Of a stretch of DNA of 64,000 nt, positions 1,896-27,088 are shown one piece after another. Position 1 is the first letter of the stretch. The number at the start of each line of letters is the position of its first letter. The stretch is from NCBI GenBank assembly GCA_964500435.1, contig CAZCNL010000010.1, positions 1,326 through 65,325 on the forward strand, read 5' to 3'. Below the pieces are notes generated by a model, which was not told the origin of the DNA, searched no databases, and saw only the letters and a program-made list of their open reading frames with translations. The position numbers and the translations under genes were made by a program. Source of the stretch: an uncultured Chloroherpeton sp. Its GTDB lineage: Bacteria; Bacteroidota; Ignavibacteria; Kapaibacteriales; UBA2268.

Positions 1896-3065
1896 ATGAA
1901 AAAGATTTATTTAATAATATTTTTTATACCAATTTTGTTGAAAAGCACTGTTCCAGAAATACCTGAATTTGATTACGAAAAAATTATAAATTACGATATA
2001 TATTCTGATAATAGAACAGTCTGGGAAGTTGGCTTTTATGATTTAAAATCTTTTTATCTCTTAGTTCCAAATATATCTATTAAATTTCCAACAAGAGACG
2101 ATTTTACAAAAGGTAGCTTTTTTATTGCACCAACATTATTGGGGAAAGATGGTTCTCTAATAAAAATAACAGAAACACGAAGAACAGGCACATATTTTGA
2201 TTCATTGGCCGATACAGCTCATATTTTCTCTTATGTCCTTTCTGACGAAAATAAAATAAGAATTATTTGCAAGCGAGGATATCCAACATATTTGAGTTAT
2301 TCTTTCAAATCACACCCACTGATATTTGATTTTAATTACAACTTAGAATTGCAAAAAGTAAAAACAGACACAACTTATTTCCATCCGAATTATGGATCAT
2401 ACTTAGTTATAAAAGATGGACATTATTATTTTGGATACAACGACCTTAAATTCTTGCAAGATTCGAATGGATATGTATTAAAACGGTGGGGTGAGTATTA
2501 TATTAAGGAATATAAAGAGACTGATAATTATTTAGAAGATATGCATAAAGACATAAAATTAAAATTCCCCTCTGATACCGTAGATACATTGTTACGAGAA
2601 TTAATGAATGAATTTACATTTGGAATACAAAAGTATCCGAATGAAGGACAAATATCAGCATATTTTTACTTTAAAGACACAACCGGCAAATTATACCAAA
2701 GATTATGCTATTTCGATAAAGAAGGAAATTATTTGTATTGTAATAAAGAAAAATTGCCAACAGTCATTATAACAGGTTCGATTTATGATAAAGATGAAAA
2801 TGCATATACATTTAATCGCAATCTTGATAAAAGTGAAAGTACTCCACCAACGTTAATAAAATATGATAATAAAGGCAATGTAATATGGGAAACAGCATTA
2901 CCATTGGATTTAAAGGAAAATGATAGCTTAAAAGTATATATTTTTCGAAACAATATAGTAGCAAAATTTTTAGATTCGAATCACATCATAGTATTTTATT
3001 CAAAATATTATTATGGTCCCGATAAATCAAGGATACTTTTCCCTCGTTTGTCGAAGAAAAAATAA
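1896..3065 (+). pseudogene. 3'-truncated tandem paralog of 269-1891, lacking the T9SS CTD
   Basis: Long identical blocks with copy 1 up to ...YYGPDKS (nt 3030), then unrelated sequence and a stop 11 codons later. Confidence 0.8.
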
Positions 3066-3199
3066 CTTACGGTGCAACCGCAGCATTACGCAACCTGCTT
3101 TTCGACGGTGATTACAAGTATAAAGACATTATACGCCCTGCTGTAACAATCAAGCAGTCTTATTCCGTAACCTTTGCTCAACCATCTCTTAAGAAATAA
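3032..3199 (+). pseudogene. Start-less 55-codon C-terminal remnant of a probable phage gene
   Basis: Frame DTFPSFVEEKITYGATAALRNLLFDGDYKYKDIIRPAVTIKQSYSVTFAQPSLKK* opens at the junction, has no start codon and is followed by a hairpin. Confidence 0.55.
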
Positions 3200-3215
3200 C
3201 TTAAACACCCAAAAA

Positions 3216-3240
3216 CCCCTCCTGAACTAAACAGGAGGGG
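3216..3240 (+). terminator. Hairpin upstream of the ParB-like gene
   Basis: CCCCTCCTG-aactaaa-CAGGAGGGG perfect 9-bp stem; no U-tract on +, A-run on its 5' side (U-tract on -). Confidence 0.45.
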
Positions 3241-3266
3241 CAAGGGCAAACTAAAAGGAATAAAAA

Positions 3267-4430
3267 ATGAACGAAGAAATAATATTGATAAATGTATCAG
3301 ACATTGCTTCGCACCCGAAGCAAGAAGAAATTTACGGCGAAATGAGCCTCGAGCCCGAATTCATCGCATCAGTCAAAGATGATGGTATCTTAAATCCAAT
3401 CATAGTAACCTATTCAAATCTATTTGGCGGGATTTCTGATTGCAAATACACGAGTATATCAGGTCATCGCAGACTTGCAGCTTGCAGGGAATTGAATATT
3501 GAACAAATTCCTGCTATTATAAGAGAATATAATTCAGCCGAAGATTCTGTAAAATCTCTCCTTGCTCTAAACTTCCAAAGAGAGAAAAATGACACTCAAA
3601 GAATAAATGAATTTTTGGCATACAAGCAAATATTGTGCCAAATCGGCAAAAAGCACAAGGGCAAAGGTGTTTACACTGACACTGTATTTGATAATGATGA
3701 GTTTTCGACACTTGTCAAAAACTTAAAAATCGACCCTCAGCGACCCTTAAATTCGACAGATATTTTGAAAAATATTTGCGGTTTTGCAGAAAGAGAGCAA
3801 AAATATATGACTGTAATTTTTGATGCTGATTATCAGCCTCGAACAATCGAAAAACTTACAAAATTAGGACTTTCGCTCGATGACCATAATGCTTTGCTGA
3901 GTTTTTGGAATGATATACGAACTGAAGTAACTTCGAAGCAACGAACACTTAAAAATGCGCACGATGCAATCAAGTCAGCAATTAATATGTACGCTGCAAA
4001 GCTCGAAGAGCAGAACAAAAAGCCTGCAAAAAAAGCTACGCCGGACAAACAAAAGCCAAAAGTAGCGGCAGAAGTGCCAAAACCAAAAGTAGCGGTAGAA
4101 GTGCCGAAACAAGCCAAATTTGTGTATCTGTCCGGACCGATAAGCAATAATAATAAATACGTCGATGACTTTGCGAAAGCAGAGAAGGCAGTAAAAGATT
4201 TATTTCCTTCAAATTACAAGGTTATCAATCCTGCTAAGTTTTCAATCGATAAAACGGGAGACGAACATGTAGACTGGATTAAATACATGGCAGAGGAAGC
4301 GATACCGCAACTACTGTCAGAAGCATGCGATGCCATTGCGATGCTCAAAGGCTGGGAGAATTCGAAAGGAGCGTCAGTTGAACATGCGATCGCAAAAGCG
4401 ATGGACTACACGATTGTTTATTTAACTTAA
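3267..4430 (+). CDS. ParB/Srx N-terminal domain protein fused to a C-terminal DUF4406 / nucleoside-deoxyribosyltransferase-like domain
   Basis: N-term SVKDDGILNPIIV...ISGHRRLAACRELNIEQIPAII; C-term VYLSGPIS...F...E...VINPA...CDAIAMLKGWENSKGASVEHAIAKAM. Confidence 0.75.
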   Translation: MNEEIILINVSDIASHPKQEEIYGEMSLEPEFIASVKDDGILNPIIVTYSNLFGGISDCKYTSISGHRRLAACRELNIEQIPAIIREYNSAEDSVKSLLALNFQREKNDTQRINEFLAYKQILCQIGKKHKGKGVYTDTVFDNDEFSTLVKNLKIDPQRPLNSTDILKNICGFAEREQKYMTVIFDADYQPRTIEKLTKLGLSLDDHNALLSFWNDIRTEVTSKQRTLKNAHDAIKSAINMYAAKLEEQNKKPAKKATPDKQKPKVAAEVPKPKVAVEVPKQAKFVYLSGPISNNNKYVDDFAKAEKAVKDLFPSNYKVINPAKFSIDKTGDEHVDWIKYMAEEAIPQLLSEACDAIAMLKGWENSKGASVEHAIAKAMDYTIVYLT

Positions 4431-4443
4431 CCGGGGTGGTTTA

Positions 4444-4692
4444 ATGTTTTGTCCGAAATGTTCAAGTGATAATTGGTCTGTAATCAAAAAGTATTCTTTT
4501 CGTCGTTTTGTTGAAGGAAAAGGCTGGGTTTACTCTGATGAATATGATACACGTAGATTGCTCTGCAATAACTGCATGAGTGTCTTTTTGGTTGAATCTA
4601 AAATCGTATTCAAGGAGGAATTTGATGAACTAAAACACAAAAAGAGAATCACTGTAGTTCACAAATCACCATTCGACGAGGATGCGAAATGA
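4444..4692 (+). CDS. Zinc-ribbon protein (Ogr/Delta- or NrdR-N-like), possible late-transcription activator
   Basis: CPKC...RRLLCNNC..F.VE two-CxxC pattern. Confidence 0.5.
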   Translation: MFCPKCSSDNWSVIKKYSFRRFVEGKGWVYSDEYDTRRLLCNNCMSVFLVESKIVFKEEFDELKHKKRITVVHKSPFDEDAK

Positions 4693-5681
4693 AAGAATTT
4701 TTAAAAGCAGTGAAAGAGTTGGTTGAAAGACTTTACAAAGAAGGGCGCCCGGGCGACATTAGCAAAGAAATCAAAGCTTTAGCAAAACAATACAAAATCG
4801 GCGAGCAAGGTTTGAGAGAAGCTAAGAAAATACAGAATGCTTACCAAAGCAATTTGGAAGATGAATTTATCAAAAAATTCACGAAAGAATTTACTGTAAG
4901 TGAATTTGATAGAATTTCTGAAAACTTTCAAAAGAATGTAGTCGAGTCCGTTAAGCGTTCCATGCGTTCATCTGACCCTGATATAGCTGTAAAAGCAGTA
5001 AAAAGGCTGGGTGTTGTAGCAGAAAGGCATTTACGGACAGTTGTCCAAACAGCAAAGGACGGCATCAACCAGGCTCAGGTAATCGAAGATGCCAAGAACT
5101 CAGGCATTAAGCAAATGCGGTACGTCGGCCCTAAAACAAGTCTTCGCCCTTTTTGTTTCAAGCACGTTGGTAAAATCTACACTATCGAAGAAATCAAAAA
5201 TATGAGCAATGGTCAAGGTTTGCCCGTATTGTACTTTGGCGGCGGCTATAACTGCCGTCACAGGTGGGTCGCTGTGGAAGGCGAGGAACAGAATGGAGTT
5301 TTTCTCCACGAAAGTTTTAAGGCGAAATACGGCAGCAATGTGCCGAAAGTAGTTGCAGAAGAAATAAAAGGAGCCGAATTACTTGCCGCTCACGGTAAAG
5401 TGGAAATCAATCCTTACCGTCAGGAGCAAGAAAAAGCCGATACAGATTTGTTCTTCGACGGCAAACCTGCGCAATTGAAACAAACAAATTCGCAAAACGA
5501 AAATATTTTTAGACAAAAACTTCGGGATGCTCGTCATCAAGCTGATAACGTAATAATAATTTTTAACGGTTTGCCTGATGAATCAAGGTCGATAGAAATC
5601 GCAAAGAATTGGCTTAGAAAGCATCCCGAAAAGAAATTGATAATATACAATAAACAAACTCAAAAATTTAAGGAGATTTAA
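4689..5681 (+). CDS. MuF/minor capsid (head morphogenesis) protein with a C-terminal CdiA-like PD-(D/E)XK toxin domain
   Basis: R.FC...GK.Y...GGYNCRHRW MuF-type motif, then DTDLFFDGKPAQLK...FRQKLRDARHQADNVIII. Confidence 0.7.
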   Translation: MKEFLKAVKELVERLYKEGRPGDISKEIKALAKQYKIGEQGLREAKKIQNAYQSNLEDEFIKKFTKEFTVSEFDRISENFQKNVVESVKRSMRSSDPDIAVKAVKRLGVVAERHLRTVVQTAKDGINQAQVIEDAKNSGIKQMRYVGPKTSLRPFCFKHVGKIYTIEEIKNMSNGQGLPVLYFGGGYNCRHRWVAVEGEEQNGVFLHESFKAKYGSNVPKVVAEEIKGAELLAAHGKVEINPYRQEQEKADTDLFFDGKPAQLKQTNSQNENIFRQKLRDARHQADNVIIIFNGLPDESRSIEIAKNWLRKHPEKKLIIYNKQTQKFKEI

Positions 5682-5961
5682 AATGAAATACGCAGACTGG
5701 GTAGATGATTTTGAAAGCGGCACAATCGAATGGAATATCGAAACTGCTTGTTATGCTTTGGGCGCCATCGAGTCTGATCGCCTCCACGGTGATTTAACCG
5801 ATGAAGAAGCTGAAAAACTTAAAAAAATGCTTCCGTTGACAAAGGAAGATCTCGCTAAAATTGATTTTTAAACAAAAGGAGATTTAAAATGAAATACGGT
5901 GACTGGGTAGATGATTTTGAAAGCGGCACAATCGAATGGAATATCGAAACTGCTTGTTATG
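5670..5961 (+). repeat. 86-bp direct repeat (5670-5755 and 5876-5961), period 206 bp
   Basis: AAGGAGATTTAAAATGAAATACG(CA/GT)GACTGGG...GCTTGTTATG; only 2 mismatches. Confidence 0.95.
5683..5871 (+). CDS. Small acidic protein, candidate cognate immunity protein 1
   Basis: 62 aa; starts 1 nt after the toxin stop; RBS AGGAG. Confidence 0.55.
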   Translation: MKYADWVDDFESGTIEWNIETACYALGAIESDRLHGDLTDEEAEKLKKMLPLTKEDLAKIDF

Positions 5962-6077
5962 TGCTGGGTATTCTTTTCTCAGATTATATAAATCATCAGA
6001 TAACCGAAAAGGAGTATGACGAACTGGTAAAAATGGTGCCTATCTCTAAAGAAGTCAAAGACAAAATTAACTGGTGA
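5889..6077 (+). CDS. Small acidic protein, paralog of 5683-5871, candidate immunity protein 2
   Basis: 62 aa; first 24 residues identical except one; C-terminal half divergent. Confidence 0.55.
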   Translation: MKYGDWVDDFESGTIEWNIETACYVLGILFSDYINHQITEKEYDELVKMVPISKEVKDKINW

Positions 6078-6460
6078 ACAATATGAGAAGAGATTTAGAT
6101 TTGGTAAGACATCTGCTGCTTAAGCTCGAAGGAGAGCAATCTTATAAGGATGCAAAAGAATCCGCAGCAGATGCAGCTTTGCTGACAAATACGAAGATTA
6201 CGAAAAAAACTGTCCATGAACATTATTTATGGCTTTTTGATGCGGGATTTATTGAGGCTCAGCTCATCGCAAGAGCTGGCGGTTACAGCGTTGTTTATCC
6301 TCGCAGGCTTACATGGGCAGGCGCAGAGTATTTGGATTGCGTACGAGATTCGAAAATCTGGAGAGAAACCAAAAGTAAACTTTCGGCAGTTGGCTCGGCT
6401 TCGCTTCCGATTATCCAAAAATTAGCAGAAAGCATAATCAAAAAAGTGCTTTCCATTTAA
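6074..6460 (+). CDS. DUF2513-family protein (start may be the ATG at 6083)
   Basis: MRRDLDLVRHLLLKLE...RLTWAGAEYLDCVRD..IW..TK signature. Confidence 0.8.
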   Translation: MNNMRRDLDLVRHLLLKLEGEQSYKDAKESAADAALLTNTKITKKTVHEHYLWLFDAGFIEAQLIARAGGYSVVYPRRLTWAGAEYLDCVRDSKIWRETKSKLSAVGSASLPIIQKLAESIIKKVLSI

Positions 6461-6480
6461 TAATTTTTTAAACCAAATCC

Positions 6481-6507
6481 AAAAGCCCTCAAACGAGGGC
6501 TTTTTTT
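6481..6507. terminator. Bidirectional intrinsic terminator between convergent operons
   Basis: AAAAGCCCTC-aaac-GAGGGCTTTTTTT. Confidence 0.85.
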
Positions 6508-7051
6508 ATGAACGCGCTTTCAAATCCGTTTTAATTCTGCTAACGGCTTCATCAATGAATTTAGGGTCGTTCAGAACCAATCCTGCTGCATAATCTAAAA
6601 GCCTATTTTCGTTTTCGTCGGTAAGCCCGAAGAACTTCCAAAGCCGCCTACTTTTGCCCACTCCCGAAACGTTAAACCAGAACGCTTTTTGTGCCTGTTC
6701 TGCCGAAGTGAAGTAAATAACGCTACTTGTATCGGATTCTGCTCTCGCAGAAATTGATTTTAGCATTGAACCTGACCATTGTAGGTAATCGCCTTCAGGA
6801 TTTCTGTTGTTCATCACTCTCCAATCTTTGTAACCACCTGTAACGATCTGCCAAAGTTTGCCATTTGCATTAAAAGGTTTCAATCTTCCTTCTTTTTGCA
6901 GTGTTTTGAGCCCTTTCAAATTTCGTTTTGCGGGCATAGCAAAAGGTTTTGTGGAGTATTTGTAAGATTTGCCATCTACATCAACTCCTTTTTCAATTTG
7001 CTCGTTAATAAGCTCGATAGCATAAAAAGCGATCTTCTCGATTATACTCAT
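6506..7051 (-). CDS. Phage virion morphogenesis protein (Mu gpG-like)
   Basis: G.D.DG...LQWSGSMLKSI...R.W.FFGLTDENE resembles the virion morphogenesis family; directly after the portal. Confidence 0.55.
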   Translation of the reverse strand: MSIIEKIAFYAIELINEQIEKGVDVDGKSYKYSTKPFAMPAKRNLKGLKTLQKEGRLKPFNANGKLWQIVTGGYKDWRVMNNRNPEGDYLQWSGSMLKSISARAESDTSSVIYFTSAEQAQKAFWFNVSGVGKSRRLWKFFGLTDENENRLLDYAAGLVLNDPKFIDEAVSRIKTDLKARS

Positions 7052-8160
7052 TGCGGGAGAGCTCCATCAAATATTTCATCGCCTGCAGCGGGCACTTTAA
7101 AGCCAATCTTTTCGTAAACCTCAGTTTTAACAAGCGGGATGCCTGCCGCAAGCGCTTCACGAATAACAGCGACGTTGGACTCATAATCTGCTTGAACATC
7201 TGTGATAAAATTGAATCTGTAAGGTGGGGCTTCATTGCCATAATTTAAAAACCAATCCCATTTGACGAGCTTATTGCACGCTTTTTCTGCGATTTTTAAA
7301 TCGAACCACATTAAATCATCGGTAACTAATTTTTGAACCTGGAGCGCAGCTCTGGAACCTGTTTTTGCCGGCAATTCAGCAACGTTCGCCTGACCGACAA
7401 TCGCTATGGCGATTGAGCTATCTAATAAATCGGAAGCATCTTTGAACGAGCTTGCAGAACCAGATTGCACAATAGAGTGAAAATTAAAGTCCACTAAATC
7501 ACTTGTCATAAGGTAGTTGTTTTTAACTGCACTAATCAACGCATTCTTAGCCTCGGTTATTTCTTCCGCAGAAGCACCATGCTCAATTCCGTGAATAATA
7601 CCTTTTAACTTTCTGTTGAAGTTCAGCCACTCGAGAAGATTGTCGTTTCTATATATCTCTAACAGCCCAACCGACCTCATTTGACCGCCGACTCTATGCG
7701 ATGAATCCGCAATATAAAATTGGTCTTCACCACGAATATTTCTAACATCATTGACAAATTCAAAAACCGTATCATTTTTGAAGCCTGTAAGTGAGGACAA
7801 AGGCAGCTGTCGGGCAGTTTTAGGTGTAACGCCGGCTTCGGTAGTTTCCCAGCCCAATTCAACGCAAAAACAGCCAAAGAGACTAAAATCAACCGAAGCA
7901 AAAATAATCACCTGAAGAGCATCTCGTAGTCTTTCCATTGCTTCCTGGGCTGCTTCGACGAACTCGTTTGATTTTGGCTTCAAATCAAAATCCCAGCTAG
8001 CAACTGCGGCACGGCGGGTATTGATATAACCACCCAATTTGGTGTTGATGGACGAGAACCATTCGAGAGTTTCAAGCAATTTCCTTGCGTCTCTATCTTC
8101 GGGAAGAGTGCGGTCTAAATTTCTGAGCATTGTTAGGTAAGTTTTTGGATCGGGATACAT
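7048..8160 (-). CDS. Portal protein (DUF935 / Mu gp29-like)
   Basis: 370 aa; R..AV..W.F.L, ...ISIAIVGQ......GSRA..QV...V..D, GIPL...EVYEKIG...P motifs. Confidence 0.7.
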   Translation of the reverse strand: MYPDPKTYLTMLRNLDRTLPEDRDARKLLETLEWFSSINTKLGGYINTRRAAVASWDFDLKPKSNEFVEAAQEAMERLRDALQVIIFASVDFSLFGCFCVELGWETTEAGVTPKTARQLPLSSLTGFKNDTVFEFVNDVRNIRGEDQFYIADSSHRVGGQMRSVGLLEIYRNDNLLEWLNFNRKLKGIIHGIEHGASAEEITEAKNALISAVKNNYLMTSDLVDFNFHSIVQSGSASSFKDASDLLDSSIAIAIVGQANVAELPAKTGSRAALQVQKLVTDDLMWFDLKIAEKACNKLVKWDWFLNYGNEAPPYRFNFITDVQADYESNVAVIREALAAGIPLVKTEVYEKIGFKVPAAGDEIFDGALPQ

Positions 8161-8567
8161 TATAGCACCTCAGTTAATTGGTAAACAAAATAAAGTTGAA
8201 TCATATTTACAGCAATATCGGAATAATAGCTGTCGAATTGTACTAAAGGATTTGAAGCACCATCTAATTGGAGAATATCGACAGCAAACCTGAAGGCTCT
8301 TTCAAGGTATTCCTGCGATTTCAGGCGTGATTCATCGGGGGTTTTTGATTTATCCCCGGCAAATAATATTAGTTCACCTTTCGCCATATCTGCGGCACCA
8401 TCAGCCAGTATAATCTCGGCAGGGCTCAAAAACAACCATAAAAACGGTGCAGATGAAGGCATTTCGCCCACTTTGCCGAGCCTGATATTTTTGGCTGGAA
8501 CTCCGATTGACTCAGCATTAAGCAACATACAATCAAGCAAAGCTTCTGAAATATCTCTGAATGTCAT
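8160..8567 (-). CDS. Phage protein, possible head-tail joining or tail terminator
   Basis: Coupled on both sides (ATGA and TAATG overlaps) in the packaging operon; ATG at 8567. Confidence 0.4.
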   Translation of the reverse strand: MTFRDISEALLDCMLLNAESIGVPAKNIRLGKVGEMPSSAPFLWLFLSPAEIILADGAADMAKGELILFAGDKSKTPDESRLKSQEYLERAFRFAVDILQLDGASNPLVQFDSYYSDIAVNMIQLYFVYQLTEVL

Positions 8568-8932
8568 GAGCACTCCCACGGATTATACAAACCTTCAATT
8601 GCTCCTAATTCAGCAGTAGCAGCGTTCCTCTGTGCAGAATATTTGTGCTTTGAAAGCAATTCGAAAGCCTGTTTATATTTTGCTTGCCTGCGTTGCTCGT
8701 ATTCTGGACTTACTGATGATAATTTATCACCTGCCAAATACTCTATTAAGAATGCAAAAGGAGCTATGAGCCAGGAAGTGCCATCTGGTCTCGTATTTGA
8801 AATCGGCAGATTAGTTTCAGCATGTATAATTTCTAAAGCATTGCTTTTTAACATTTCAAAACTACCGTCATCGGTAATTTGTTCGAAAAGTACTGATGGG
8901 ATAAGGCTTTGAATTTCATTAAGTTCTACCAT
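8564..8932 (-). CDS. Head-tail connector, Mu gp36/DUF1320-like
   Basis: Size ~120 aa; C-terminal R...Y.QA.ELL helix; ATG at 8932 preferred over the longer ORF call. Confidence 0.45.
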   Translation of the reverse strand: MVELNEIQSLIPSVLFEQITDDGSFEMLKSNALEIIHAETNLPISNTRPDGTSWLIAPFAFLIEYLAGDKLSSVSPEYEQRRQAKYKQAFELLSKHKYSAQRNAATAELGAIEGLYNPWECS

Positions 8933-8948
8933 AAACAACCTATTTTTT

Positions 8949-10535: not shown

Positions 10536-11011
10536 TTTTCAAATTCCTCTTTATAAATCAATAAAACATCTTGGTCAGTAGCGTCGGGTTTGAATCTTCT
10601 GATAATTGAGGCAACAACCTCCGAATCTGCACGCTTCATATGTCCTGTAAGGCTTATTTGTTGCATTTTTTTCTGTACGGCGATTAATTTGTCCAACTGA
10701 TTAATTCTTTCGGATGCAGTTAAATTTTTATCGGCCGCAAGGGAAGCCATAGACTTATGATACTCTTTTTCAAAAAGTTCTTCTGCCGTAAAATTCGACA
10801 TAATATCTTCGAGTTTTTGAGTTTTTTCTCTTGGAGACTTGCGATCAAGCAGGCCTTTTATGAACTTCTGATGAGCATATCTTGCCTGCTCGTAAGTGCA
10901 ATTAAATTCATTGGCAACTTCGGAGTAAGTTGCGTTTGGATTTGCTTCTTTCCATTTACCAATTCGCCTCTGCTTTGCAATTGATTGCTGTGGTGATTTA
11001 ATTCTGCCCAT
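10514..11011 (-). CDS. Probable terminase small subunit (N-terminal HTH)
   Basis: ATYSEVANEFNCTYEQAR HTH; overlaps the TerL start. Confidence 0.6.
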   Translation of the reverse strand: MGRIKSPQQSIAKQRRIGKWKEANPNATYSEVANEFNCTYEQARYAHQKFIKGLLDRKSPREKTQKLEDIMSNFTAEELFEKEYHKSMASLAADKNLTASERINQLDKLIAVQKKMQQISLTGHMKRADSEVVASIIRRFKPDATDQDVLLIYKEEFEKCKISQL

Positions 11012-11252: not shown

Positions 11253-11253
11253 A

Positions 11254-11340: not shown

Positions 11341-11376
11341 GTGATTTTTTAATAATTATAATTTAAAAGCAGGAAA

Positions 11377-12957: not shown

Positions 12958-12958
12958 T

Positions 12959-17548: not shown

Positions 17549-17562
17549 TCAAGTATAGTAAT

Positions 17563-17856: not shown

Positions 17857-17920
17857 AGCCGAAATAATTTCTAGTATTGTAGATAAATAAATTTTTATCA
17901 GTTAAAATGGAGAATTAATA

Positions 17921-18643
17921 ATGTCCACAGCCACAACAAACAAAAAGATAATTCTGAAAGGATTTCCGTACCTTTCGATGCAGGAAATTGTCGCTGGGGC
18001 TATCAGCCCGTGCTACACGTTTAACAACACAAAATCGGTAACGTGCAAATTGCCGGCACCAAGCACAAGTTCATCATCGAGCGATAACCTCGATATTGTA
18101 CGCAGCGACGGGGCAATCATACGATTTCCTAAGACTTCGCTTGTGCTTAGCGGAATCGACGAATCTGATATCACGCCGGCAGCTGCAAGCTCTGATGCAA
18201 CAGGTAAGTGTGAAATCGACGTCGTTCTTAACGAGGCAGCCGTAGAGACGAACTCTATGACTGCAATGTTTAAAGCATTAAAAGAAAAGAGAGATTCTTT
18301 ATGGCTCGTAACAATTGCAACTGGATTGTCGCACGAAGCTGAAACGAATGCAACTCTCAGAAAACCTGATGGCTTTGTTCATATGATTGGTAAAATCTCG
18401 AATGATATTGAACAGCAATATGCCGACGCACCTACAACCTTAGCTTTGAACTTCGTCTCCTACACCAATTCAGGATTAGATGAAGCCAAACTTACAGGCG
18501 TAGTATTTACACCAGTTACATGGAAGAAAGGCGGAACAGGTAAGGACGTAACAGCAATCACACCACCAGCAATTACTTCGGAAGGCGCTGCTAATTTATT
18601 GGCAGGCGATTGCGAAATAGTTACTAATATAACCTACGTCTAA
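17921..18643 (+). CDS. Probable major tail (tube) protein
   Basis: 240 aa, acidic and Thr/Ala-rich, strong RBS GGAG, first gene of the tail block; no direct motif match. Confidence 0.4.
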   Translation: MSTATTNKKIILKGFPYLSMQEIVAGAISPCYTFNNTKSVTCKLPAPSTSSSSSDNLDIVRSDGAIIRFPKTSLVLSGIDESDITPAAASSDATGKCEIDVVLNEAAVETNSMTAMFKALKEKRDSLWLVTIATGLSHEAETNATLRKPDGFVHMIGKISNDIEQQYADAPTTLALNFVSYTNSGLDEAKLTGVVFTPVTWKKGGTGKDVTAITPPAITSEGAANLLAGDCEIVTNITYV

Positions 18644-18651
18644 CGTTTAAA

Positions 18652-21057
18652 ATGAGATTCTTTCAGAAATATCGCTTTATCGAACACGACACGGGCGAAC
18701 AATGGGTATTGTTCGCCGTGTCTGATTCGCATGAGGAGTTATTTGAAAACACAGGAACAGAAGTTGACATCTTTATGCTGGAGTCAATAAAGCGAGACCT
18801 CAATATTGATGAAGGCTATTTTGCGATTGATGAATTGCCGTTTTCTGTTAACCATCTTAATTGCGAAACAGAAGATGATAAAAAAGCTATGTATTTCGTG
18901 CTTGATGCCGCAGATGTTAAAGTGAACAGATATTGTGCATTGTTCTTTTCCGAAACTCCAACTCTTTCAGAGATGCAGTTTTTGGGAAAAATCGGCACAA
19001 AAATAACGGGTGAAGATAAAACCTGGGAAGGTGATTCTTATGAAACTGATATTAACCCCAAAAGAGAGTATAAATTATCTGCTCTAAGTTTTGACATTTC
19101 TAAACTCGAGGAATGTAAAATCAGCGGGGATATTTACCGGACTGACGGCACGGGTGAAACAAGGATTGACAATCTTCGAGATAGATGGCTGAGAAGAAGC
19201 GGGCAGGGATTTGATGAATTGGGGTATCAGAAAGTATTTTATTGGCAGAATAAAACACGAAACGAACCATTCGATACCGTTGACCAATTTGGCTACTTCC
19301 AGAATATGGCTAATTTGTACGATGTGCTTGTAAGGTACTTGCATTATTGTGAGGAGATATTGCTCGAGAAAGACGGTATTGCGGTAACAATCGGACTAGA
19401 AGAATCGAATATGGATTTCGCTTGTCAACCTGCAACATATACATACTCTAAAGCCTGGACGCCTGGATTTCGTACCGAATTTTGGGATGTTGGGCAAGCA
19501 GGCATTCAACACATAGCACGATTAGGAAGTGGCAATGCACCTCTTGCGAATACCGGTCTGCTATTCATTAATCTTAAAATGGTTGACCCGTTTGCTAATT
19601 CTACGCCCTCTGACTTGCAGGCAAGCAATGAGCGCGCTTACTCATTTTTGTCATTCGAGGATATGGCTCAATTACTGTATGCGATTGCGAAATCATTTGG
19701 ATGTTATATATTTGCCAATTACAATGCAGCCAATTCAATCAATATCGCATTCAAATCAAGATCTGCGATAGTAGAAACTAACTATACGAGAATATACGGG
19801 GCTACAGAAGCTAATATAGATACTTCCTTCGGGACTACGAATAAAGCACGTGCATATTATGCGGTTGCAAATAATTATGCCGATGAAGGTGCAGACGTTA
19901 TTTCAGGGGACAAGCCAACAGATAATTTTGTAAAAGCGGATGCACACCGGAAGGCACTCAAAAACAGCAAGAATATCGAATCAGAGCTCTTGTTGTTTTC
20001 GGGTTCGCCGACGCTAAGAATGTTTTATCAAAATGGTTATCCAATAGCTCAAATGCCTTTAAACTCAATGTTCAGAAAAGCTCCTCTTATCGAAGAAAGT
20101 CAACCTACGAATTACTATGAGACCGCTGAAGATGGCAAGAGAGAATATTTGCACACTTCGATTTATATTTCTTGTGAAGCACCTGAGCCAGAAGTTCTGG
20201 CTCATACAGGGTCTCATTCGGTGCTGAGACCCGTTGCGGGATTTGTGCTGAAATTAGGAGGAGTGAATAAGCAATACACCAAACTTTCTGATATGATTAC
20301 GGAAATTATGGGACGAGACAACGAGTTTTATCAGACAGAATACTCCTTAACAATACCGTCCTGGAATGGATTTTTGAAAGAAAACGATCCAAATCCATCA
20401 TGGAAAAACATTAAGCTCGGTTCCAAAATTAAACTGTCAGAATTAGTAACTCGCTTCACTGGTACTGAGTGGATAGAAGGGGTATCCTTAGGGGATTATA
20501 CTGTAGTTGGTATTGAGGTTGATTTACAGCAGCCCAAAACGACATTAAAGTTACATTCAGTTGAGCGTTTCGCTTTTGGTTATTGGGATGGTGCGGAATT
20601 GCCGAGTGCGATTCTTACCCCGCCTGTTGCATATGACCCGAAGTCTGCCCTAAGTGGCGTTAAGAATATGAATTATATCATAAAGGACGGTGAAATAATT
20701 GGAATTAACGATTCGGTAGATATTTTGCCCGATGGTAAAATTGCAAAAACAAGGAGCATTTCTACTTCGGGTGGAATTCCAATTGGAATAGCAACCGAAT
20801 CAGGCATAGGCGGAGAGACAATCGCAGTTCAGATAGCCGGCAAAGTGTATTCACCTGATTTTAATTTTGTAAATATCGGTGGATATTTATACGCCAGAAC
20901 CAATGCGCAAGGCTCGAATTTGACAGAAATGATTCTTTCAGCACCAAATTACACCGAAGATTTGATAATTATTCTCGGCAAAATTGATTCAGAAAAGAGT
21001 TTTATACTTGATATAAGGGAATTAAAATTCGAATCGGGGGTTATACTACAAACATGA
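18652..21057 (+). CDS. Large tail or tail-tip protein with a C-terminal beta-clip (DUF2190-like) segment
   Basis: 801 aa; C-term PIGIATESGIGGETIAVQIAGKV. Confidence 0.5.
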   Translation: MRFFQKYRFIEHDTGEQWVLFAVSDSHEELFENTGTEVDIFMLESIKRDLNIDEGYFAIDELPFSVNHLNCETEDDKKAMYFVLDAADVKVNRYCALFFSETPTLSEMQFLGKIGTKITGEDKTWEGDSYETDINPKREYKLSALSFDISKLEECKISGDIYRTDGTGETRIDNLRDRWLRRSGQGFDELGYQKVFYWQNKTRNEPFDTVDQFGYFQNMANLYDVLVRYLHYCEEILLEKDGIAVTIGLEESNMDFACQPATYTYSKAWTPGFRTEFWDVGQAGIQHIARLGSGNAPLANTGLLFINLKMVDPFANSTPSDLQASNERAYSFLSFEDMAQLLYAIAKSFGCYIFANYNAANSINIAFKSRSAIVETNYTRIYGATEANIDTSFGTTNKARAYYAVANNYADEGADVISGDKPTDNFVKADAHRKALKNSKNIESELLLFSGSPTLRMFYQNGYPIAQMPLNSMFRKAPLIEESQPTNYYETAEDGKREYLHTSIYISCEAPEPEVLAHTGSHSVLRPVAGFVLKLGGVNKQYTKLSDMITEIMGRDNEFYQTEYSLTIPSWNGFLKENDPNPSWKNIKLGSKIKLSELVTRFTGTEWIEGVSLGDYTVVGIEVDLQQPKTTLKLHSVERFAFGYWDGAELPSAILTPPVAYDPKSALSGVKNMNYIIKDGEIIGINDSVDILPDGKIAKTRSISTSGGIPIGIATESGIGGETIAVQIAGKVYSPDFNFVNIGGYLYARTNAQGSNLTEMILSAPNYTEDLIIILGKIDSEKSFILDIRELKFESGVILQT

Positions 21058-21467
21058 AATTAATTACATTAAGATACAGTGACACCAAGTTAGCCGCTCT
21101 TGAATTTGATAATATGGCTACAAACCAGAATTCATTTGAAGGTGTGAAATTAACAACTCCAATCAGGAACACGGCTGAGGATTCGGGCATTCTGCTAAAC
21201 GGCAGAAAGTATTCTAATCTGAAGTGGGTAAACATCGAACAGGAACTGGTTATTTCATCTGACGAAATCGACAAAGGCATTCTTGAATTTCTTCAGAATT
21301 TCTGGACATCAAGATTCAAGTATATATCGCTTTTAGACGGCTTTGGTGTTTGGAGCAATTATATCAGAGTTGTTACCGATGGCGGTCCTTTTCCGTTAAC
21401 CAATATCAACGATTTGAAAGAGTTACCGGAAGTTGCTTTGAAGTTATCTTATTCGGAGCCTATATGA
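21054..21467 (+). CDS. Hypothetical tail protein
   Basis: ATGA-coupled 137-aa ORF. Confidence 0.5.
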   Translation: MKLITLRYSDTKLAALEFDNMATNQNSFEGVKLTTPIRNTAEDSGILLNGRKYSNLKWVNIEQELVISSDEIDKGILEFLQNFWTSRFKYISLLDGFGVWSNYIRVVTDGGPFPLTNINDLKELPEVALKLSYSEPI

Positions 21468-21934
21468 GTGATTTGGTTTTAAATGCAATTGCAGGTGTAA
21501 TAAATTTACTGCCAATAACAAGGTTGCAACTCTATAAATATGCCTCTGGAGAGCGCATAATTATAGACCAGATTGAAACAGAATCGAGTTATAAAATTAC
21601 ACCAATTACACGGCTTGCAGACAGCGGTCTTGCGAAAGTACTTGGATACAATTACGAAATAACAATCTATGTGCCTTTCAATTTATTCGATTCGAACGGA
21701 TTGCTTGAGGCGATCGAGAATTTAAAGAATGAAGAAAATGTGATAACGTACCTTACGATAGGCGGAGGAGGCAGTTATGTGCCACCAGAACCGCCAAAAA
21801 CAATTAATTGCACAGCCCAACAAATACTTGCAATTTCTCATACGAAACCTTATGCTGAACTCGAGTCGGTTGAATTGAGACCAAGGACAATAATTCATAT
21901 CAACGGATTTACAAAACAATTAAATAATTTTTAA
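21464..21934 (+). CDS. Hypothetical tail protein (start at ATG 21464)
   Basis: ATGA overlap with the previous stop. Confidence 0.5.
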   Translation: MSDLVLNAIAGVINLLPITRLQLYKYASGERIIIDQIETESSYKITPITRLADSGLAKVLGYNYEITIYVPFNLFDSNGLLEAIENLKNEENVITYLTIGGGGSYVPPEPPKTINCTAQQILAISHTKPYAELESVELRPRTIIHINGFTKQLNNF

Positions 21935-21948
21935 TCAGGATAAATAAA

Positions 21949-22425
21949 ATGGAAAATTACACACCTATTGAACCTGTCGTATTTTTAGCAAATACAAGAC
22001 AATACAAATATGATTTCAATTTGCTTACAGTTGAACAAGCCGAATTGGCATTTGAAATTGCAAAATTCAAAGAAGACCAGAAGTCTAATCCTCCCGAGAC
22101 ATTCAATCAGATAATTAAATCGAAGGCTATTGATTGGAAGTTTTTGGCGATGAGTTATTTAGTTAGGGAAATCAAAAATGATAAACCGATGCCATTCGAC
22201 AGAGATGCCGCAGAAATGCATATAGCAACAGATTTTAAGCAGTTGCCAATTAATGAAAAGTCAAAGATTGAGGCATGCTTAACGGATTTTTTTTACAATA
22301 CAGGGCAGAGTTCGATGATACAGACCTGCTTGCAAGGAGAAAAGAAGCTGAACGTGACAGAAATATTATTGCCGATGCTACTGAGAACCTTAGGCAGCAA
22401 AGAGAACGAGACGCCTGGATTATAA
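21949..22425 (+). CDS. Tail assembly chaperone (gpG-like)
   Basis: Lies just before the tape measure gene; contains the in-frame slippery heptamer T TTT TTT at 22287-22293. Confidence 0.6.
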   Translation: MENYTPIEPVVFLANTRQYKYDFNLLTVEQAELAFEIAKFKEDQKSNPPETFNQIIKSKAIDWKFLAMSYLVREIKNDKPMPFDRDAAEMHIATDFKQLPINEKSKIEACLTDFFYNTGQSSMIQTCLQGEKKLNVTEILLPMLLRTLGSKENETPGL

Positions 22426-22613
22426 AGCAGCACAGGATAAACAGGGTTTACGAATCAGGCGAATTAACCCGAAGATTGGCTGAAAGTTGGAGAAAAATTT
22501 GGTATGTACCGATTTTAGCAAATAATGATGTAACTAAATTTGATAAAATAAGGAAGGTGTTGTTCAGAGATGCGATGACCGCATTGAAAAATCATATTGA
22601 GGCGATACCGTAA
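22287..22613 (+). CDS. -1 frameshift extension of the tail chaperone (gpGT-like)
   Basis: -1 frame is open from the slippery site to TAA at 22611-13; predicted fusion is 221 aa. Confidence 0.55.
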   Translation, partial: FFLQYRAEFDDTDLLARRKEAERDRNIIADATENLRQQRERDAWIIKQHRINRVYESGELTRRLAESWRKIWYVPILANNDVTKFDKIRKVLFRDAMTALKNHIEAIP

Positions 22614-22615: not shown

Positions 22616-22641
22616 AAGCAAGGGAGTAAGCTCCCTTGTTT
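22616..22641 (-). terminator. Hairpin just upstream of the tape measure RBS, with its U-tract on the minus strand
   Basis: AAGCAAGGGAG-taag-CTCCCTTGTTT, preceded by an A-run. Confidence 0.45.
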
Positions 22642-22659
22642 CATAAAAGGAGTATTGTG

Positions 22660-25600
22660 ATGGCAAATAATAAAATTCAAATATTGTTAGATTTATTAGT
22701 CAATTTGAAGAGCGACCCTGGTCAAATAAACCAGTTTGTAGCACAAATTGAACAGTCGGCCAAAAAGTTAAATATCAGTATCGATACCGATAAGACAAAG
22801 AAAGCGGTAACCGATATGGTGAAGTCGCTCGATGAAGCTGAGACAGCTTTAAAGCAGATTAATAGCGTCCCGCTCGAAAAACTCGAATTGGAATTTAAGA
22901 ATGTAGAGAGAGCGTCATCTGGTTTTATGGATAGGTTGGCGAAATTTGGTATGATCTCAATGGGCGTTGAGCAATTTACGCAAACTATAAATCAGTTTCA
23001 GCAGCCATTTGCAGAGTTAGATAAGCAGGTGAGGAATATTGGTACTCTTGGCGTGAAAAACTTTCAGGAATTTGCCGATCGTGCAACAGAGCTTTCGATA
23101 TCAGTTCCCGATTCGGCAGTTGCGATAGCCGAGGGTGTATATGATGCCATATCTGCGGGTACAATTAAGGTAAAGGATGGCGTTGCTGATGTTGCAGGCG
23201 GGATGCAGTTTGTCGAAACTGCTTCCAAATTAGCAGCTGCAGGTTTAACCACAACAAAGGACTCTATCAACGGTTTAACATCTGTTATGAATGCTTACGG
23301 GTTAGAAGCCAATCAGGCAGGAAAAGTAGCCGATACGTTTTTTGGAGCCGTAAATGTGGGGAAAACAACAATCCCTGAATTAAATGCATCGTTAGCCCAA
23401 GTGATACCAACGGCGGCGAGTTTCGGAGTAGAATTCGACCAGGTTGCTGCTTCGATAGCTACAATGACAAAACAGGGCACACCGACAGCTCAGGCTGCTA
23501 CGCAGATTCGTGCAGCTCTTGTTGAGCTGGCAAAACCGGGTGCGGAATTAGCTCCAATATTACAAAAAGCGGGTGTTTCGTTGGATTCGTTAAAGAAAGA
23601 AGGGCTGCAGGAATCGTTTAAAAAGATTGGAATAGCTCTTGATTCTACAGGAAAATCAGCAACTCAGGTTTTCGGTTCGGTCGAGGCGGCGTCGGCAGTT
23701 ATGCTTCTATCGGGTAAGAATGCAGCAATGGCAGCAAGCGATTTAGATTTAGTTAAAAACTCTATCGGTTCGACGGATGCAGCATTTGCGGTAGCTTCCG
23801 AAGGGATAGATTCAAAATCTAAAATGCTAATGAACTCCATTCAGGCAGGCTTTAATGAAGCAATGTCGGTTTTGGGGAGTTACGGACAGTTAGCATTATC
23901 TACGGCAGCTCAGGTGGCGCCGCTAATGACATCCTTTACAGGATTAGCAACTTTAATTCCTGCCGGGACTGTAGGGAAGGTAGGAGAATTAGGTAAGACG
24001 ATTTTAACGAAGTTGGTACCGGGCTTGATGGGAGCTGCTACTGCACAAGGTTCGTTGAATGCTGTAATGGGCATGAATCCGATATTTGCTGTTACGTTAG
24101 CGGTGACGGGTTTAGTAGCTGGTTTAAAATTACTTTCAGAGGCACTTCACGAGACTGCACAAGAAAAATTAAAGGATGCAGAATCACAAGATAAACTTAT
24201 CGATAAAGAGATTGAGGCAAAAGAAAAGGAAATTGAGCTTGCAGAATCCAAACAAAAGCTTGTCGAAGAGTTCAAAAATACCGGCGAATCTGCTATGGAA
24301 AATGTCGAAATGATGACCAAATTATCACAAGCTTATCCCGGTGTGATTGATGCTTCAAAATCATATCAAGAAAATCTTGCCGCTCTGTCAGCGGCATCAA
24401 ACAAAACAAAGGAAGACCTTGCAAAGTTGACCACAGAAATCGGAACCCTTGCCGAGAAAAAACTCGACCTCCAACTAAAAATATCTAACCTCAAAGTTGA
24501 TGTGGAAAAACAGAACATTGAAAATACTTTAAAAGATGCATTCAAAATCTGGGGACTTTCCGATGCAAGTGAGTGGATTTTCGGTACTAGCACAGCTAGA
24601 CAAATGGGCGAGCAAATTATAAAACCTTATACAGATGCTATTTCTAATGCAAAGAATTCAAAAGAACTTGAAAAAGCTTCCCTCGATTTTCAAATGGCAA
24701 TATTCAATTCGAAGGATTTCGAAAAATTAACAGCAGAAGAAAAAACCAAGATGCTCAAAGGCATCAATAAAATGGTTGAAGCAAGAAAATCTGCCATGGA
24801 TAGTGCAAATCAAAATGCAGGTAAAGACTTTGAAGTTCTTAAAGACAGTGGTATGCAAACAGGTCAGATAATTGATTTCCTTGCAAAGAAATACAACGCC
24901 ACAAAAGAAGAAATTAAAGGCATAATCGATGCACAGGAAAGATCGAAACAGGAAACAATTGAGCAGACTGCAAGCGTGGAAAGTTTGGCGGCGGCCTGGA
25001 ACAAAGTAAAAGCTGATGCAAAAAAATCTCTGGATGAAAACGCAGGTGCTATGGCTGAATTGCTTTCGAAAGGAAAAGAGAATTGGACTCAGGAAGATTT
25101 TGATAAGTGGGACCAGTATAAGAAAGCAGGCTTCAATGCTCATAAAGCTATCGTGGAGCAAGCTAAAATTGATGAACAGGTGCAAAAAGCATTAGGTATT
25201 ACTGTCGCTAAAAATTCAAGTGAAAAGAAATCGCAGTTAGAGTTACTGACAAAGGAATTTGAGCTTTACAAACAAAAAGCAAAGTATGATAGCGATATTG
25301 TTGAATCTGAGAAGCAACTATCATTCATTCTGCAAGAGCGGGAAAAAACTACTTATGATGATTTGGCTGCCCAAGAAAGAAAGATTCAGTTGGCGAAGGA
25401 TGAAAAAGAGAAATTTCTTGAAATTTACAAGGCGTTAGTAAGTGAAAATGAAAGTGGCGGCTTGGACATTTCGCCTAAATTGAAGAAAGAAGATAGGATG
25501 AAATTAGAAAATGATTACAAGCAGATTATTTTGAATTTGAAGAATGAATCGAATAAGGAGCTTGAATTAAAGGCTAAGATAAAATTAGACCAGGAGGAAT

Positions 25601-27021
25601 TTAATAAGAGTTTTGCTGAATTTAAAAAACAGCAGCTCGAATACGACATTACACTGGGACTCAAAAACCCTGACGAAATGGTTACTTTGCTACAAGAGCA
25701 ATTGACTAAGATTGACCAGAAAATTGCAGAGACAAAAGCGAAAATGGAAAAACTCGGTGTTTTACCTGCTGATGCGACACCTGAAATGAAGGCTCAAATC
25801 GCATCTTTAGATAAAAGTCTTTTAGCATTGTCGCAAGAGAGGTTCAATTTAGAGAAAGACATTTCTTCGAAGAAAAAAGCAATTTACGACGATGAGCTCA
25901 AAGCAATCGCAACCGCCTCAGAGGATGAAACAAAGATTGTTGAAGAGAAATACAGCAAAACAAGCGAATCATTAAAGCGGTTCAACGAGCTTTGGACTAA
26001 GTCAAGTTCTGTCAAGATTGATTACCAAAAAGACCAGCAATTAAATGATTTGAAAAGTATAGAAGATGAGAAATTAAAGGTGCTTGATAGTTATAAAGAA
26101 ATGGGAGTTATATCCGCAGAGGATTATGAGGCAAGAAAAACAAGAATCACGGAAGAAGGTGAGGCAAAGAGAGCAGCAATTGAAGAAAAAGCACGTCAGG
26201 ACAAACTGAGAAATGACGCATTAGCCAAAGGTATGGAAAAGGAGAACGAGAGAAAGCATTCACTTGACTTAGCAAATATTACGAAAAAATCAGCTGAAGA
26301 GCAAATGAATATTTTGAATGCTAAAAAACTCAAACAGGGCGGATTTTTAGATATAGCAGATAAAACGCAGTTAGATAATTTGAAGGAGCAATTCGATAAA
26401 GCAAATGATGTTATAGCTATGAATGCGAATTCGCTGATAACAGCAACTGAAATTGCAGGTACTGGTTTTGCCGACGCAATTACGCAATTTATGGCAGGTG
26501 ATTCGAAAGGTGCAATTGATGCTTTGAGGGCATCTTGGGGAGAGATATTGGGAGTATTTGCAGCAGGTTTAAAGAAATGGGCATCAGGTTTGGTACTTGA
26601 ATTACTCTTCGGGGAATTGTCGGCACTATCACCAACTGGATTTTTAGCATTAGTTGCAGTTCCGGTTTTAAAATCAATTGCCGAGGGGGCAATCGGAGCG
26701 ATAATAGACCCATTCCTAAATGATATAACAAGTTTTGCGACTGGTGCAAAATTCGACCAACCGACGCTTTTAAATGGCAATATTCAAGTTGGAGATGCGG
26801 CTTTAAATGGCGGAAAAAATAGAGAGTGGCTTCTTAATGACAGGGATTTTCAGATGGCATTAAGACTATCGGCAGCAACAGCCACGATGTCGGTTGTTGC
26901 CGAGATGAGAGCAATGACAGCGATGCTGGCAAATCAGAAATTAGAAACAAAGTTAACTGGCAGAGATGCGAGAATAATGCTAATAAGAGAGCAATCAGCA
27001 GTCAATAAAAGAGCAAAATAA
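22660..27021 (+). CDS. Tape measure protein (TP901-family core), 1453 aa
   Basis: LINGLTSVMNAYGL.A.QA..VAD.FF.AVN.GKTT..ELN.SL.QV.P.AASFGV.F core; long helical body; RBS AAGGAG before ATG 22660. Confidence 0.9.
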   Translation: MANNKIQILLDLLVNLKSDPGQINQFVAQIEQSAKKLNISIDTDKTKKAVTDMVKSLDEAETALKQINSVPLEKLELEFKNVERASSGFMDRLAKFGMISMGVEQFTQTINQFQQPFAELDKQVRNIGTLGVKNFQEFADRATELSISVPDSAVAIAEGVYDAISAGTIKVKDGVADVAGGMQFVETASKLAAAGLTTTKDSINGLTSVMNAYGLEANQAGKVADTFFGAVNVGKTTIPELNASLAQVIPTAASFGVEFDQVAASIATMTKQGTPTAQAATQIRAALVELAKPGAELAPILQKAGVSLDSLKKEGLQESFKKIGIALDSTGKSATQVFGSVEAASAVMLLSGKNAAMAASDLDLVKNSIGSTDAAFAVASEGIDSKSKMLMNSIQAGFNEAMSVLGSYGQLALSTAAQVAPLMTSFTGLATLIPAGTVGKVGELGKTILTKLVPGLMGAATAQGSLNAVMGMNPIFAVTLAVTGLVAGLKLLSEALHETAQEKLKDAESQDKLIDKEIEAKEKEIELAESKQKLVEEFKNTGESAMENVEMMTKLSQAYPGVIDASKSYQENLAALSAASNKTKEDLAKLTTEIGTLAEKKLDLQLKISNLKVDVEKQNIENTLKDAFKIWGLSDASEWIFGTSTARQMGEQIIKPYTDAISNAKNSKELEKASLDFQMAIFNSKDFEKLTAEEKTKMLKGINKMVEARKSAMDSANQNAGKDFEVLKDSGMQTGQIIDFLAKKYNATKEEIKGIIDAQERSKQETIEQTASVESLAAAWNKVKADAKKSLDENAGAMAELLSKGKENWTQEDFDKWDQYKKAGFNAHKAIVEQAKIDEQVQKALGITVAKNSSEKKSQLELLTKEFELYKQKAKYDSDIVESEKQLSFILQEREKTTYDDLAAQERKIQLAKDEKEKFLEIYKALVSENESGGLDISPKLKKEDRMKLENDYKQIILNLKNESNKELELKAKIKLDQEEFNKSFAEFKKQQLEYDITLGLKNPDEMVTLLQEQLTKIDQKIAETKAKMEKLGVLPADATPEMKAQIASLDKSLLALSQERFNLEKDISSKKKAIYDDELKAIATASEDETKIVEEKYSKTSESLKRFNELWTKSSSVKIDYQKDQQLNDLKSIEDEKLKVLDSYKEMGVISAEDYEARKTRITEEGEAKRAAIEEKARQDKLRNDALAKGMEKENERKHSLDLANITKKSAEEQMNILNAKKLKQGGFLDIADKTQLDNLKEQFDKANDVIAMNANSLITATEIAGTGFADAITQFMAGDSKGAIDALRASWGEILGVFAAGLKKWASGLVLELLFGELSALSPTGFLALVAVPVLKSIAEGAIGAIIDPFLNDITSFATGAKFDQPTLLNGNIQVGDAALNGGKNREWLLNDRDFQMALRLSAATATMSVVAEMRAMTAMLANQKLETKLTGRDARIMLIREQSAVNKRAK

Positions 27022-27088
27022 TTTGGGAACGAAAAAGGGAAATAAAAGAGCAAAATAATTTGGGAACAGAGCAAAATAATTTGGTAAC
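27004..27088 (+). repeat. Three direct repeats of AGAGCAAAATAAT(T)TGG(G/T)AAC at the right end of the phage element
   Basis: Copies at 27010-30, 27048-67 and 27068-88; the first contains the TMP stop codon. Confidence 0.9.

Follow-up and report, generated by a model that had tools for sequence, protein, structure and literature searches.

Does an intact phage virion module without mobility genes represent a particle domesticated by its host, an error of assembly, or a prophage that has lost part of its genome? We addressed this question for a phage block at approximately positions 3027-27090 of a 64,000-nt stretch of contig CAZCNL010000010.1 (assembly GCA_964500435.1), hereafter the window. 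The host was assigned to Candidatus Kapaibacteriota because three of its housekeeping proteins cluster, at 90% identity or more, with proteins bearing that name; several flanking host proteins carried type IX secretion system (T9SS) sorting domains. As detailed below, this 24-kb block is very probably a Mu-like transposable prophage whose left ~4.5 kb was deleted very recently.

The block differed from its surroundings in composition, with a GC content of 0.35-0.46 across positions 3001-27000 versus 0.26-0.28 at positions 1-3000; the host portion of the window ranged from 0.26 to 0.31 overall (average ~0.29), and the phage block averaged ~0.40. Its open reading frames (ORFs) were contiguous from 3267 to 27021, none was interrupted, and they fell into three blocks on the plus, minus, and plus strands, respectively. 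Family searches of the ORFs between 3027 and 27090 detected no integrase, transposase, repressor, primase, or helicase among the element's proteins. A first-pass annotation, made from the sequence alone, had described unbroken packaging, head, tail, and lysis genes over ~24 kb, and the ORF list, the family matches, and end-to-end orthologue alignments bore this out. It had also noted the absence of integration, replication, and immunity genes; family searches and tblastn agreed, leaving only the 3' remnant of one phage early gene (e159). The borders that it placed at 3031 and 27088 lay within a few bases of the junctions mapped here (3027-3043 and 27090-27095).

The missing arm was found in a nearly identical phage. 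Logan contig ERR14373517_387801 (L010), from another sample, aligned to window 3027-5724 and was 100% identical to it at 3027-3511 and 4107-5724 (~2.1 kb). All 49 mismatches and a single 27-nt indel were located within 3512-4106, inside the parB homologue (93% identical; ratio of nonsynonymous to synonymous substitution rates, 0.18). This patch of ~600 nt looks like a recombination mosaic; apart from it, L010 is therefore the same phage. Beyond the left limit of the shared region, on its upstream side, L010 contained a 141-aa HTH_3/Phage_CI_repr repressor gene on the opposite strand, a 69-aa ner/cro-like helix-turn-helix (HTH) gene, a gene for a 635-aa protein, and genes of 132, 207, and 159 aa. 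When the window, which is part of an 87-kb contig, was searched by tblastn with the six L010 early proteins, only the last 56 codons of one of them were recovered, at 3029-3196.

The 635-aa protein of L010 and a 630-aa orthologue matched phrog_310, annotated as transposase, over the catalytic core (E values of 6e-11 and 3e-11, respectively), and the orthologue also gave weak matches to DDE_2 (phage Mu transposase) and rve. Residues D217, D283 (in DNSRTF), and E343 (in IEQFF) were invariant, with D-D-E spacings of 66 and 60. The catalytic triad of MuA is D269/D336/E392. The same early arm was present in L011, in a 30,564-bp IMG/VR contig (L039/L015), and in L014 (27.4 kb), and the transposase, absent from the window copy, was present in L010, L011/L039, and L014. 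The IMG/VR contig begins with the repressor end and, judging from its size, is expected to terminate near the tape measure gene. L004 contained the proximal genes of the early arm, the fetched stretch ending inside a 640-aa gene at the transposase position. The first-pass annotation had proposed asking whether relatives carry a full prophage of which the block is a simple deletion derivative, and L010 and the more distant relatives showed this arrangement. Its suggestion of a recently truncated prophage is thus supported, because relatives carry the full prophage including the missing arm; its description of the prophage as half-deleted was not upheld. The retained 24.06 kb and the lost ~4.5 kb give an estimated whole phage of ~28.6 kb, of which ~16% is gone.

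A three-way alignment of the window, the host paralogue, and L010 placed the left junction, a deletion endpoint with microhomology, at 3027-3043. To its left, a host T9SS-cargo gene on the plus strand (1896-3065) is cut by the junction at approximately codon 383. This gene is a paralogue of the complete 540-aa T9SS-cargo gene at 269-1891, with 91% nucleotide identity up to 3042, and its frame closes in phage DNA at 3063-3065. The C-terminal ~150 residues of the truncated gene, including the Por_Secre_tail domain, were found nowhere in the window. Similarity to the host paralogue stops at 3042-3043, and phage homology starts at 3027, inside a phage gene: the plus-strand segment 3029-3199 encodes the last 56 codons of e159 and is 100% identical at the amino acid level to residues 104-159 of the L010 protein. 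At the crossover, the host gene and the phage 159-aa gene share TCAA(G/A)GATAC..TTTTCC, corresponding to ~4-17 nt of microhomology; judged from the alignment, such a short shared stretch is a signature of illegitimate recombination. The two tandem paralogues (269-1891 and 1896-3065) were 91% identical overall and 96% identical over two long stretches, a repeat that explains why short-read contigs break there. A look-up of the T9SS paralogue returned nothing on record.

At the right border, the phage end splits a host gene encoding a 271-aa protein. A small ORF at 27060-27332 corresponds to the 3' end of this gene, of which ~80 codons remain at 27091-27332 (plus strand). The gene was complete and free of phage in L003 (Logan SRR31838814; 99.65% nucleotide identity to window 27091-36230), and in L154, a Kapaibacteriota metagenome-assembled genome (94.7% identity to 27095-42901), it was aligned in two reading frames and contained no phage interruption. 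Homology of these phage-free relatives to the window begins at 27091-27095, and in both of them the next gene on the left is a 778-aa T9SS gene, which the window lacks. The empty site reads ...GCAAGCATTGTTATA|TATTAATAG, and the window reads ...TTTGGTAACGGATAG|TATTAATAG. At the single insertion site examined, integration was therefore within a protein-coding gene and not in a tRNA gene; tRNA-linked integration was considered and rejected, the only tRNA gene in the window being at 55300. Immediately inside the border, three direct copies of TAATTTGGKAAC (starting at 27019, 27056, and 27077) occupy 27019-27090 on the plus strand. The repeat has a 12-bp core, and its 21-nt version gave 3 matches versus 0.00 expected. 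The outermost copy is followed by GG and then by host DNA, so that the right junction lies 2-7 nt beyond the outermost repeat.

An inverted copy, CCGTTACCAARTTA, was located near the left end of both L010 and L039, phages that share only ~50% protein identity, and it matches the reverse complement of window 27075-27090 at 15 of 16 positions. Only 13-15 nt from the start of each of these contigs was a second, weaker inverted copy, the outer one; further inward were two direct copies and TTTWGGAAC arrays beside the repressor gene. Both contigs stop within ~15 nt of the outer inverted copy, which is expected if the flanking sequence varies. The end repeats are putative transposase-binding sites, and 27090-27095 may be the genuine right terminus of the phage, a reading that is as yet unproven. 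Within the window, neither att-like direct repeats nor an inverted counterpart of the right-end motif was detected. The right end of the 30.6-kb contig was not returned by scans of viral, metagenome, and genome collections, and two DNA-pattern scans for the end motifs returned only unrelated phages.

Next to the repressor gene, the TTTWGGAAC arrays, together with two copies of ATTAATTTGGKAAC, were found at 230-370 in L010, 110-240 in L011, and 230-360 in L039. This region, conserved between phages with ~50% protein identity, could be an operator or a transposition-enhancer-like element. A conserved GTGTGTGGG sits 18 nt outside the inner left-end site. Beyond the right border, a 1544-aa DUF11-repeat T9SS cargo gene (27399-32033, minus strand) had a GC content of 0.34-0.41, above the host average; both phage-free relatives also have this gene, which therefore belongs to the host, and the raised GC content beyond 27090 is not part of the island. 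The L003 contig ends, at 12180-12303, in two repetitive extragenic palindrome (REP)-like repeats (GTCATTCTGAGCGTWGCGAAG..ATCCAG), which probably explain why this assembly stops short of the T9SS paralogues.

We propose the following history. A temperate Mu-like siphovirus of ~28.6 kb would have inserted into the 271-aa gene of a Candidatus Kapaibacteriota strain after its divergence from an L003-like strain. Illegitimate recombination via short microhomology would then have deleted the left ~4.5 kb, and with it the left end, the genes for the CI-type repressor, the ner/cro-like protein, and the DDE transposase, two further small genes, and two thirds of e159; the same deletion would have taken the adjoining host DNA up to the middle of the T9SS-cargo gene. 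What remains are the ParB fusion, the Zn-ribbon protein, the MuF-like toxin with its candidate immunity genes, the DUF2513 protein, the whole late region, and the right end. Because the transposase, the left end, and the early promoter are gone, the prophage is stranded; lacking the repressor as well, the remnant would be unable to transpose, replicate, or excise. The pac site of Mu is located at the left end, and by analogy the remnant is probably unable to package itself. It would thus be a grounded prophage at the very start of decay, in which intact genes appear to reflect youth, with too little time for mutations to accumulate, and not selection.

Several observations weigh against this reconstruction. 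The putative transposase had no match above the Pfam cut-off and no PDB sequence match in a profile search, and its assignment rests on one PHROG family and a motif pattern. A MuB-like ATPase was not recognised; neither it nor Mor/C or GemA had a Pfam or PHROG match among the small early proteins of L010 and L011 or the window proteins, for which divergence is a possible reason. At the right end nothing corresponds to the conserved GTGTGTGGG that separates the two left inverted sites, so the ends do not simply mirror each other. The termini are placed only approximately, and the left end, which would border one copy of a target-site duplication, is deleted. Finally, L003 and L154 both end before the point that would show whether the truncated T9SS gene was once the upstream neighbour of the 271-aa gene, and the missing arm or a second intact copy was sought within 64 kb of the 87-kb contig only; one simple deletion is the most economical reading but is unproven.

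The last two points are also those that favour a split prophage, in which a translocation or a multi-step rearrangement moved the early arm elsewhere in the chromosome, from where it might still provide the repressor and the transposase in trans. The phage-free relatives do not reach the original site of the truncated T9SS gene, the search for the early arm covered the 64-kb window, and transposable phages are discussed as agents that reorganise host genomes (PMC7761591). Against this, the two joined pieces have the same orientation, as would result from a deletion and not from a single inversion, and the remnant has no left end on which proteins supplied in trans could act. The Logan unitig was, moreover, unbranched on the phage side of the junction, suggesting that no intact copy is abundant in the sample. 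We therefore regard a split prophage as unlikely.

The first-pass annotation had also considered a GTA-like (gene transfer agent) or toxin-delivery particle switched on by the Zn-ribbon protein, that is, a head-tail-lysis module run by the host that packages host DNA or delivers the MuF-CdiA_C toxin. In favour of such a particle, the structural and lysis genes are all intact and the mobility and immunity genes are gone, the deletion places the genes from parB to DUF2513 downstream of a host gene in the same orientation, and the block encodes a MuF-like toxin along with two candidate immunity proteins. It shares with GTAs of the RcGTA (Rhodobacter capsulatus GTA) type a head-tail-lysis cluster without replication, integration, or immunity genes. 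However, GTAs are vertically inherited at one locus, and the element was absent from this site in both close host relatives, L003 and L154 (99.65% and 94.7% nucleotide identity); it is neither conserved in close relatives nor vertically inherited. The remnant is also 100% identical over ~2.1 kb to a mobile phage that retains repressor and transposase, which leaves selection no time to have acted. On the left, the junction is a random break through microhomology within a phage gene, and MuF polymorphic toxins are a known and normal feature of temperate phages (PMC5576092). Domestication is accordingly quite improbable, and the remark in the first-pass annotation that the GC contrast and broken ends argue against an old domestication was correct. 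A nascent version, in which the deletion fused the early/middle operon to the promoter of the host T9SS-cargo gene and the resulting GTA-like or toxin agent releases DNA-less or host-DNA-filled particles or the MuF-CdiA_C toxin, has a slimmer chance still.

An assembly or binning chimera, in which reads of the phage were fused with host contigs at one border or at both, is very unlikely and is the least probable of these explanations. In its favour, the host sequences left and right of the block do not belong to a single insertion site, the source looks like a metagenome-assembled genome, and the left border adjoins the 96%-identical paralogue repeat. Against it, a Logan k=31 contig, SRR12969846_123376, is 100% identical to window 3001-5724. 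Its start lies 30 nt ahead of the first position at which the two host paralogues differ, so that it contains the left junction; the shared sequence there (up to ~17 nt, with mismatches) is far shorter than k and too short to mislead a k=31 graph. A second contig from the same Logan accession, _16634 (40.5 kb), starts at window 5932 and by its length should pass 27090; the 14.6 kb fetched (5932-20535) was 100% identical to the window. The right border coincides with the end repeats of the phage itself. The block is thus most probably an ordinary stranded prophage, neither a domesticated particle nor an assembly error.

The retained early/middle block (3267-6460, plus strand) begins with a ParB_N nuclease-like domain fused to DUF4406, a nucleoside 2-deoxyribosyltransferase-like domain (3267-4430; Pfam E values of 3.5e-10 and 9.2e-15, with PHROG matches). 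The DUF4406 domain of this fusion was not found in more distant relatives. The next gene (4444-4692) was recognised by translation as encoding an 82-aa Zn-ribbon protein (CPKC...CNNC) that is conserved in relatives. It is followed by a 330-aa protein (4689-5681) in which sub-threshold Pfam matches suggest a MuF-like head-morphogenesis domain (GGYNCRHRW) and a variable, CdiA_C-like C-terminal toxin domain. Phage_Mu_F gave an E value of 0.017, below threshold, in the window copy, and Phage_min_cap2 was matched in four of six orthologues. CdiA_C scored 22.8 bits in the window copy (E value of 1e-4; cut-off, 26.6) and 31.8 bits in the L004 orthologue (1.6e-7). The N-terminal ~200 aa were conserved (33-58% identity), whereas the C-terminus differed between relatives.

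Directly downstream of the putative toxin are two tandem 62-aa paralogues on the plus strand with 60% amino acid identity (5683-6077; individually 5683-5871 and 5889-6077), which by their position are candidate duplicated immunity proteins for the MuF toxin; this arrangement fits MuF polymorphic toxin loci (PMC5576092). Their first 93 nt form a repeat of 95% identity that breaks the Logan assembly. The locus thus resembles described MuF toxins in its conserved MuF-like N-terminus, variable CdiA_C C-terminus, small downstream genes, and location in a temperate phage. It differs from them in that both domains of the window copy fall below the Pfam cut-offs, the gene is not beside the portal gene, and the host is a member of Kapaibacteriota. 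A DUF2513 protein (6074-6460, plus strand; Pfam 3.8e-21) completes the block.

The packaging block (6506-11252) is on the minus strand and comprises genes for a 181-aa protein, a Portal_Mu portal (7048-8160; 3.8e-29), two small proteins, TerL (8949-10535; phrog_38), a 165-aa candidate small terminase, and an 84-aa protein. The same divergent layout was found in L004, L011, and L013-L016; a local inversion of the terminase-portal block was ruled out because all relatives keep this layout. On the plus strand, the head block (11377-13500) contains a scaffold/protease-like protein (11377-11931; phrog_2976), a major head protein (11965-12957; phrog_212; full-length identity to the L004 orthologue, 66%), and small genes. 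The lysis cassette (13508-15022, plus strand), recognised by a Phage_lysozyme match and a hydrophobicity scan, encodes a holin-like protein with two transmembrane segments (13508-14083), a lysozyme with a signal- or SAR (signal-arrest-release)-like N-terminus (start at 14029 or 14086, end at 14580; Phage_lysozyme 1.1e-32), and a spanin-like protein (14573-15022) whose N-terminus resembles a lipobox and whose C-terminus has a transmembrane segment, the holin and spanin roles being inferred. This cassette lies between the head and tail genes, and relatives have a CHAP-type enzyme in place of the lysozyme.

The tail genes (15033-22613, plus strand) encode proteins of 95, 493, 240, 97, 240, 801, 137, and ~160 aa and an overlapping chaperone pair (21949-22425 and 22275-22613); this group gave a match to phrog_2647 (1.4e-73), and full-length orthologues were present in L008, L009, L020, L022, and L023. 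The 493-aa protein (15336-16817) is fibre- or decoration-like. The 801-aa protein (18652-21057), encoded just upstream of the tube, chaperone, and tape measure genes, showed 34-43% identity in all relatives and may be a tail-tip or receptor-binding component. The 801- and 240-aa proteins had no Pfam match and no PDB match by profile search, and the former had no PHROG match either; a single-sequence AlphaFold model of the 801-aa protein was unusable, with a predicted local distance difference test score of 30. The last gene of the element encodes a full-length 1461-aa tape measure protein (22636-27021, plus strand; PhageMin_Tail 1.2e-27), for which an exact look-up returned nothing on record. 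Its C-terminus aligned through the last residue of P0122, a 1593-aa relative. Relatives are ~130 aa longer, and a C-terminal truncation was ruled out because the C-termini align, the length difference being N-terminal. The portal, TerL, major head, fibre-like, 240-, 801-, and 137-aa proteins and the chaperones likewise aligned nearly end to end with their orthologues. A sigma-70 promoter scan did not rise above shuffled sequences; such a scan is poorly adapted to the host phylum.

No distal-tail or baseplate gene was recognised after the tape measure gene in the window or in L008, L009, L022, L023, L029, and L078. Since relatives also end at the tape measure, this is the normal layout of the family and not a loss, and the loss of tail-tip genes after the tape measure was ruled out for the same reason; tail-tip functions are presumably encoded by unassigned genes upstream of it. 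The module, called complete in the first-pass annotation, is therefore as complete as that of its relatives, with the reservation that no such distal gene follows the tape measure. Beyond this gene, L022 continues into a leucine-rich-repeat lipoprotein gene, L023 into glycosyl- and methyltransferase-like genes, and L008 and L078 into host DNA close to an ssrA (tmRNA) gene.

In L029, a tyrosine integrase and a helicase are encoded after the tape measure (15590-19187), and in L078 the element abuts the 3' end of the tmRNA gene (10908-11268). From these sequences, the head-tail module seems to be common to transposing and site-specifically integrating phages. L008 (Ignavibacteria metagenome-assembled genome GCA_016844745.1, JAERMQ010000013.1) contains at 3017-14782 a more deeply truncated remnant of a related phage, which keeps only the genes from the 240-aa gene through the tape measure, with an AbiEii/DUF6577 pair between the chaperone and tape measure genes and the tmRNA gene 4.5 kb downstream.

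Among known systems, the closest in organisation are the Mu-like phages of the proposed 'Saltoviridae', which include fF4 of Flavobacterium columnare, a Bacteroidetes transposable phage of ~32 kb (PMC7761591). The intact relatives resemble them in the order of genes at the left end, where a leftward repressor gene precedes a small HTH gene and then a DDE transposase gene; this order was seen in L010, L011, and L039 and is deleted from the window copy. Both also have a Mu-type (DUF935/Portal_Mu) portal and a MuF-like protein; the small size of the genome (~29-31 kb), insertion within an ordinary gene, and short sites repeated at each end are further likenesses. In contrast, no MuB-like ATPase, GemA, or Mor was recognised in the element or its relatives, the terminase-portal block is divergent from the head-tail block, the lysis genes lie between head and tail, and the tape measure is last; the transposase of the relatives, missing from the window copy, matches phrog_310 only and stays below the Pfam cut-offs. 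The closest deposited phages, FP_Mushu and Villandry, showed only 21-24% portal identity, and no deposited phage matched TerL or the transposase.

Defective or grounded prophages produced by deletion are commonplace (PMC6379469). The present element resembles them in being immobilised by loss of integration/excision and regulatory genes and in having one deletion endpoint in the phage and the other in the host. It differs in being unusually early, with zero substitutions relative to the intact relative outside the mosaic patch and with all remaining genes open.

The main outcome is a clear negative: a virion module may be intact and lack mobility genes without being a domesticated particle. 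Because the parent phage with the missing arm was identified directly, the block should be annotated as a defective prophage. The results also document, in Kapaibacteriota, Ignavibacteriota, and related bacteria of the FCB (Fibrobacterota-Chlorobiota-Bacteroidota) group, a lineage of small (~29-31 kb) Mu-like transposable phages without a cultured representative. Its gene order is unusual in that the packaging and head-tail blocks diverge and the tape measure gene comes last. The locus provides a dated 'time zero' case of prophage grounding that is useful for studies of the rates of prophage decay and co-option.

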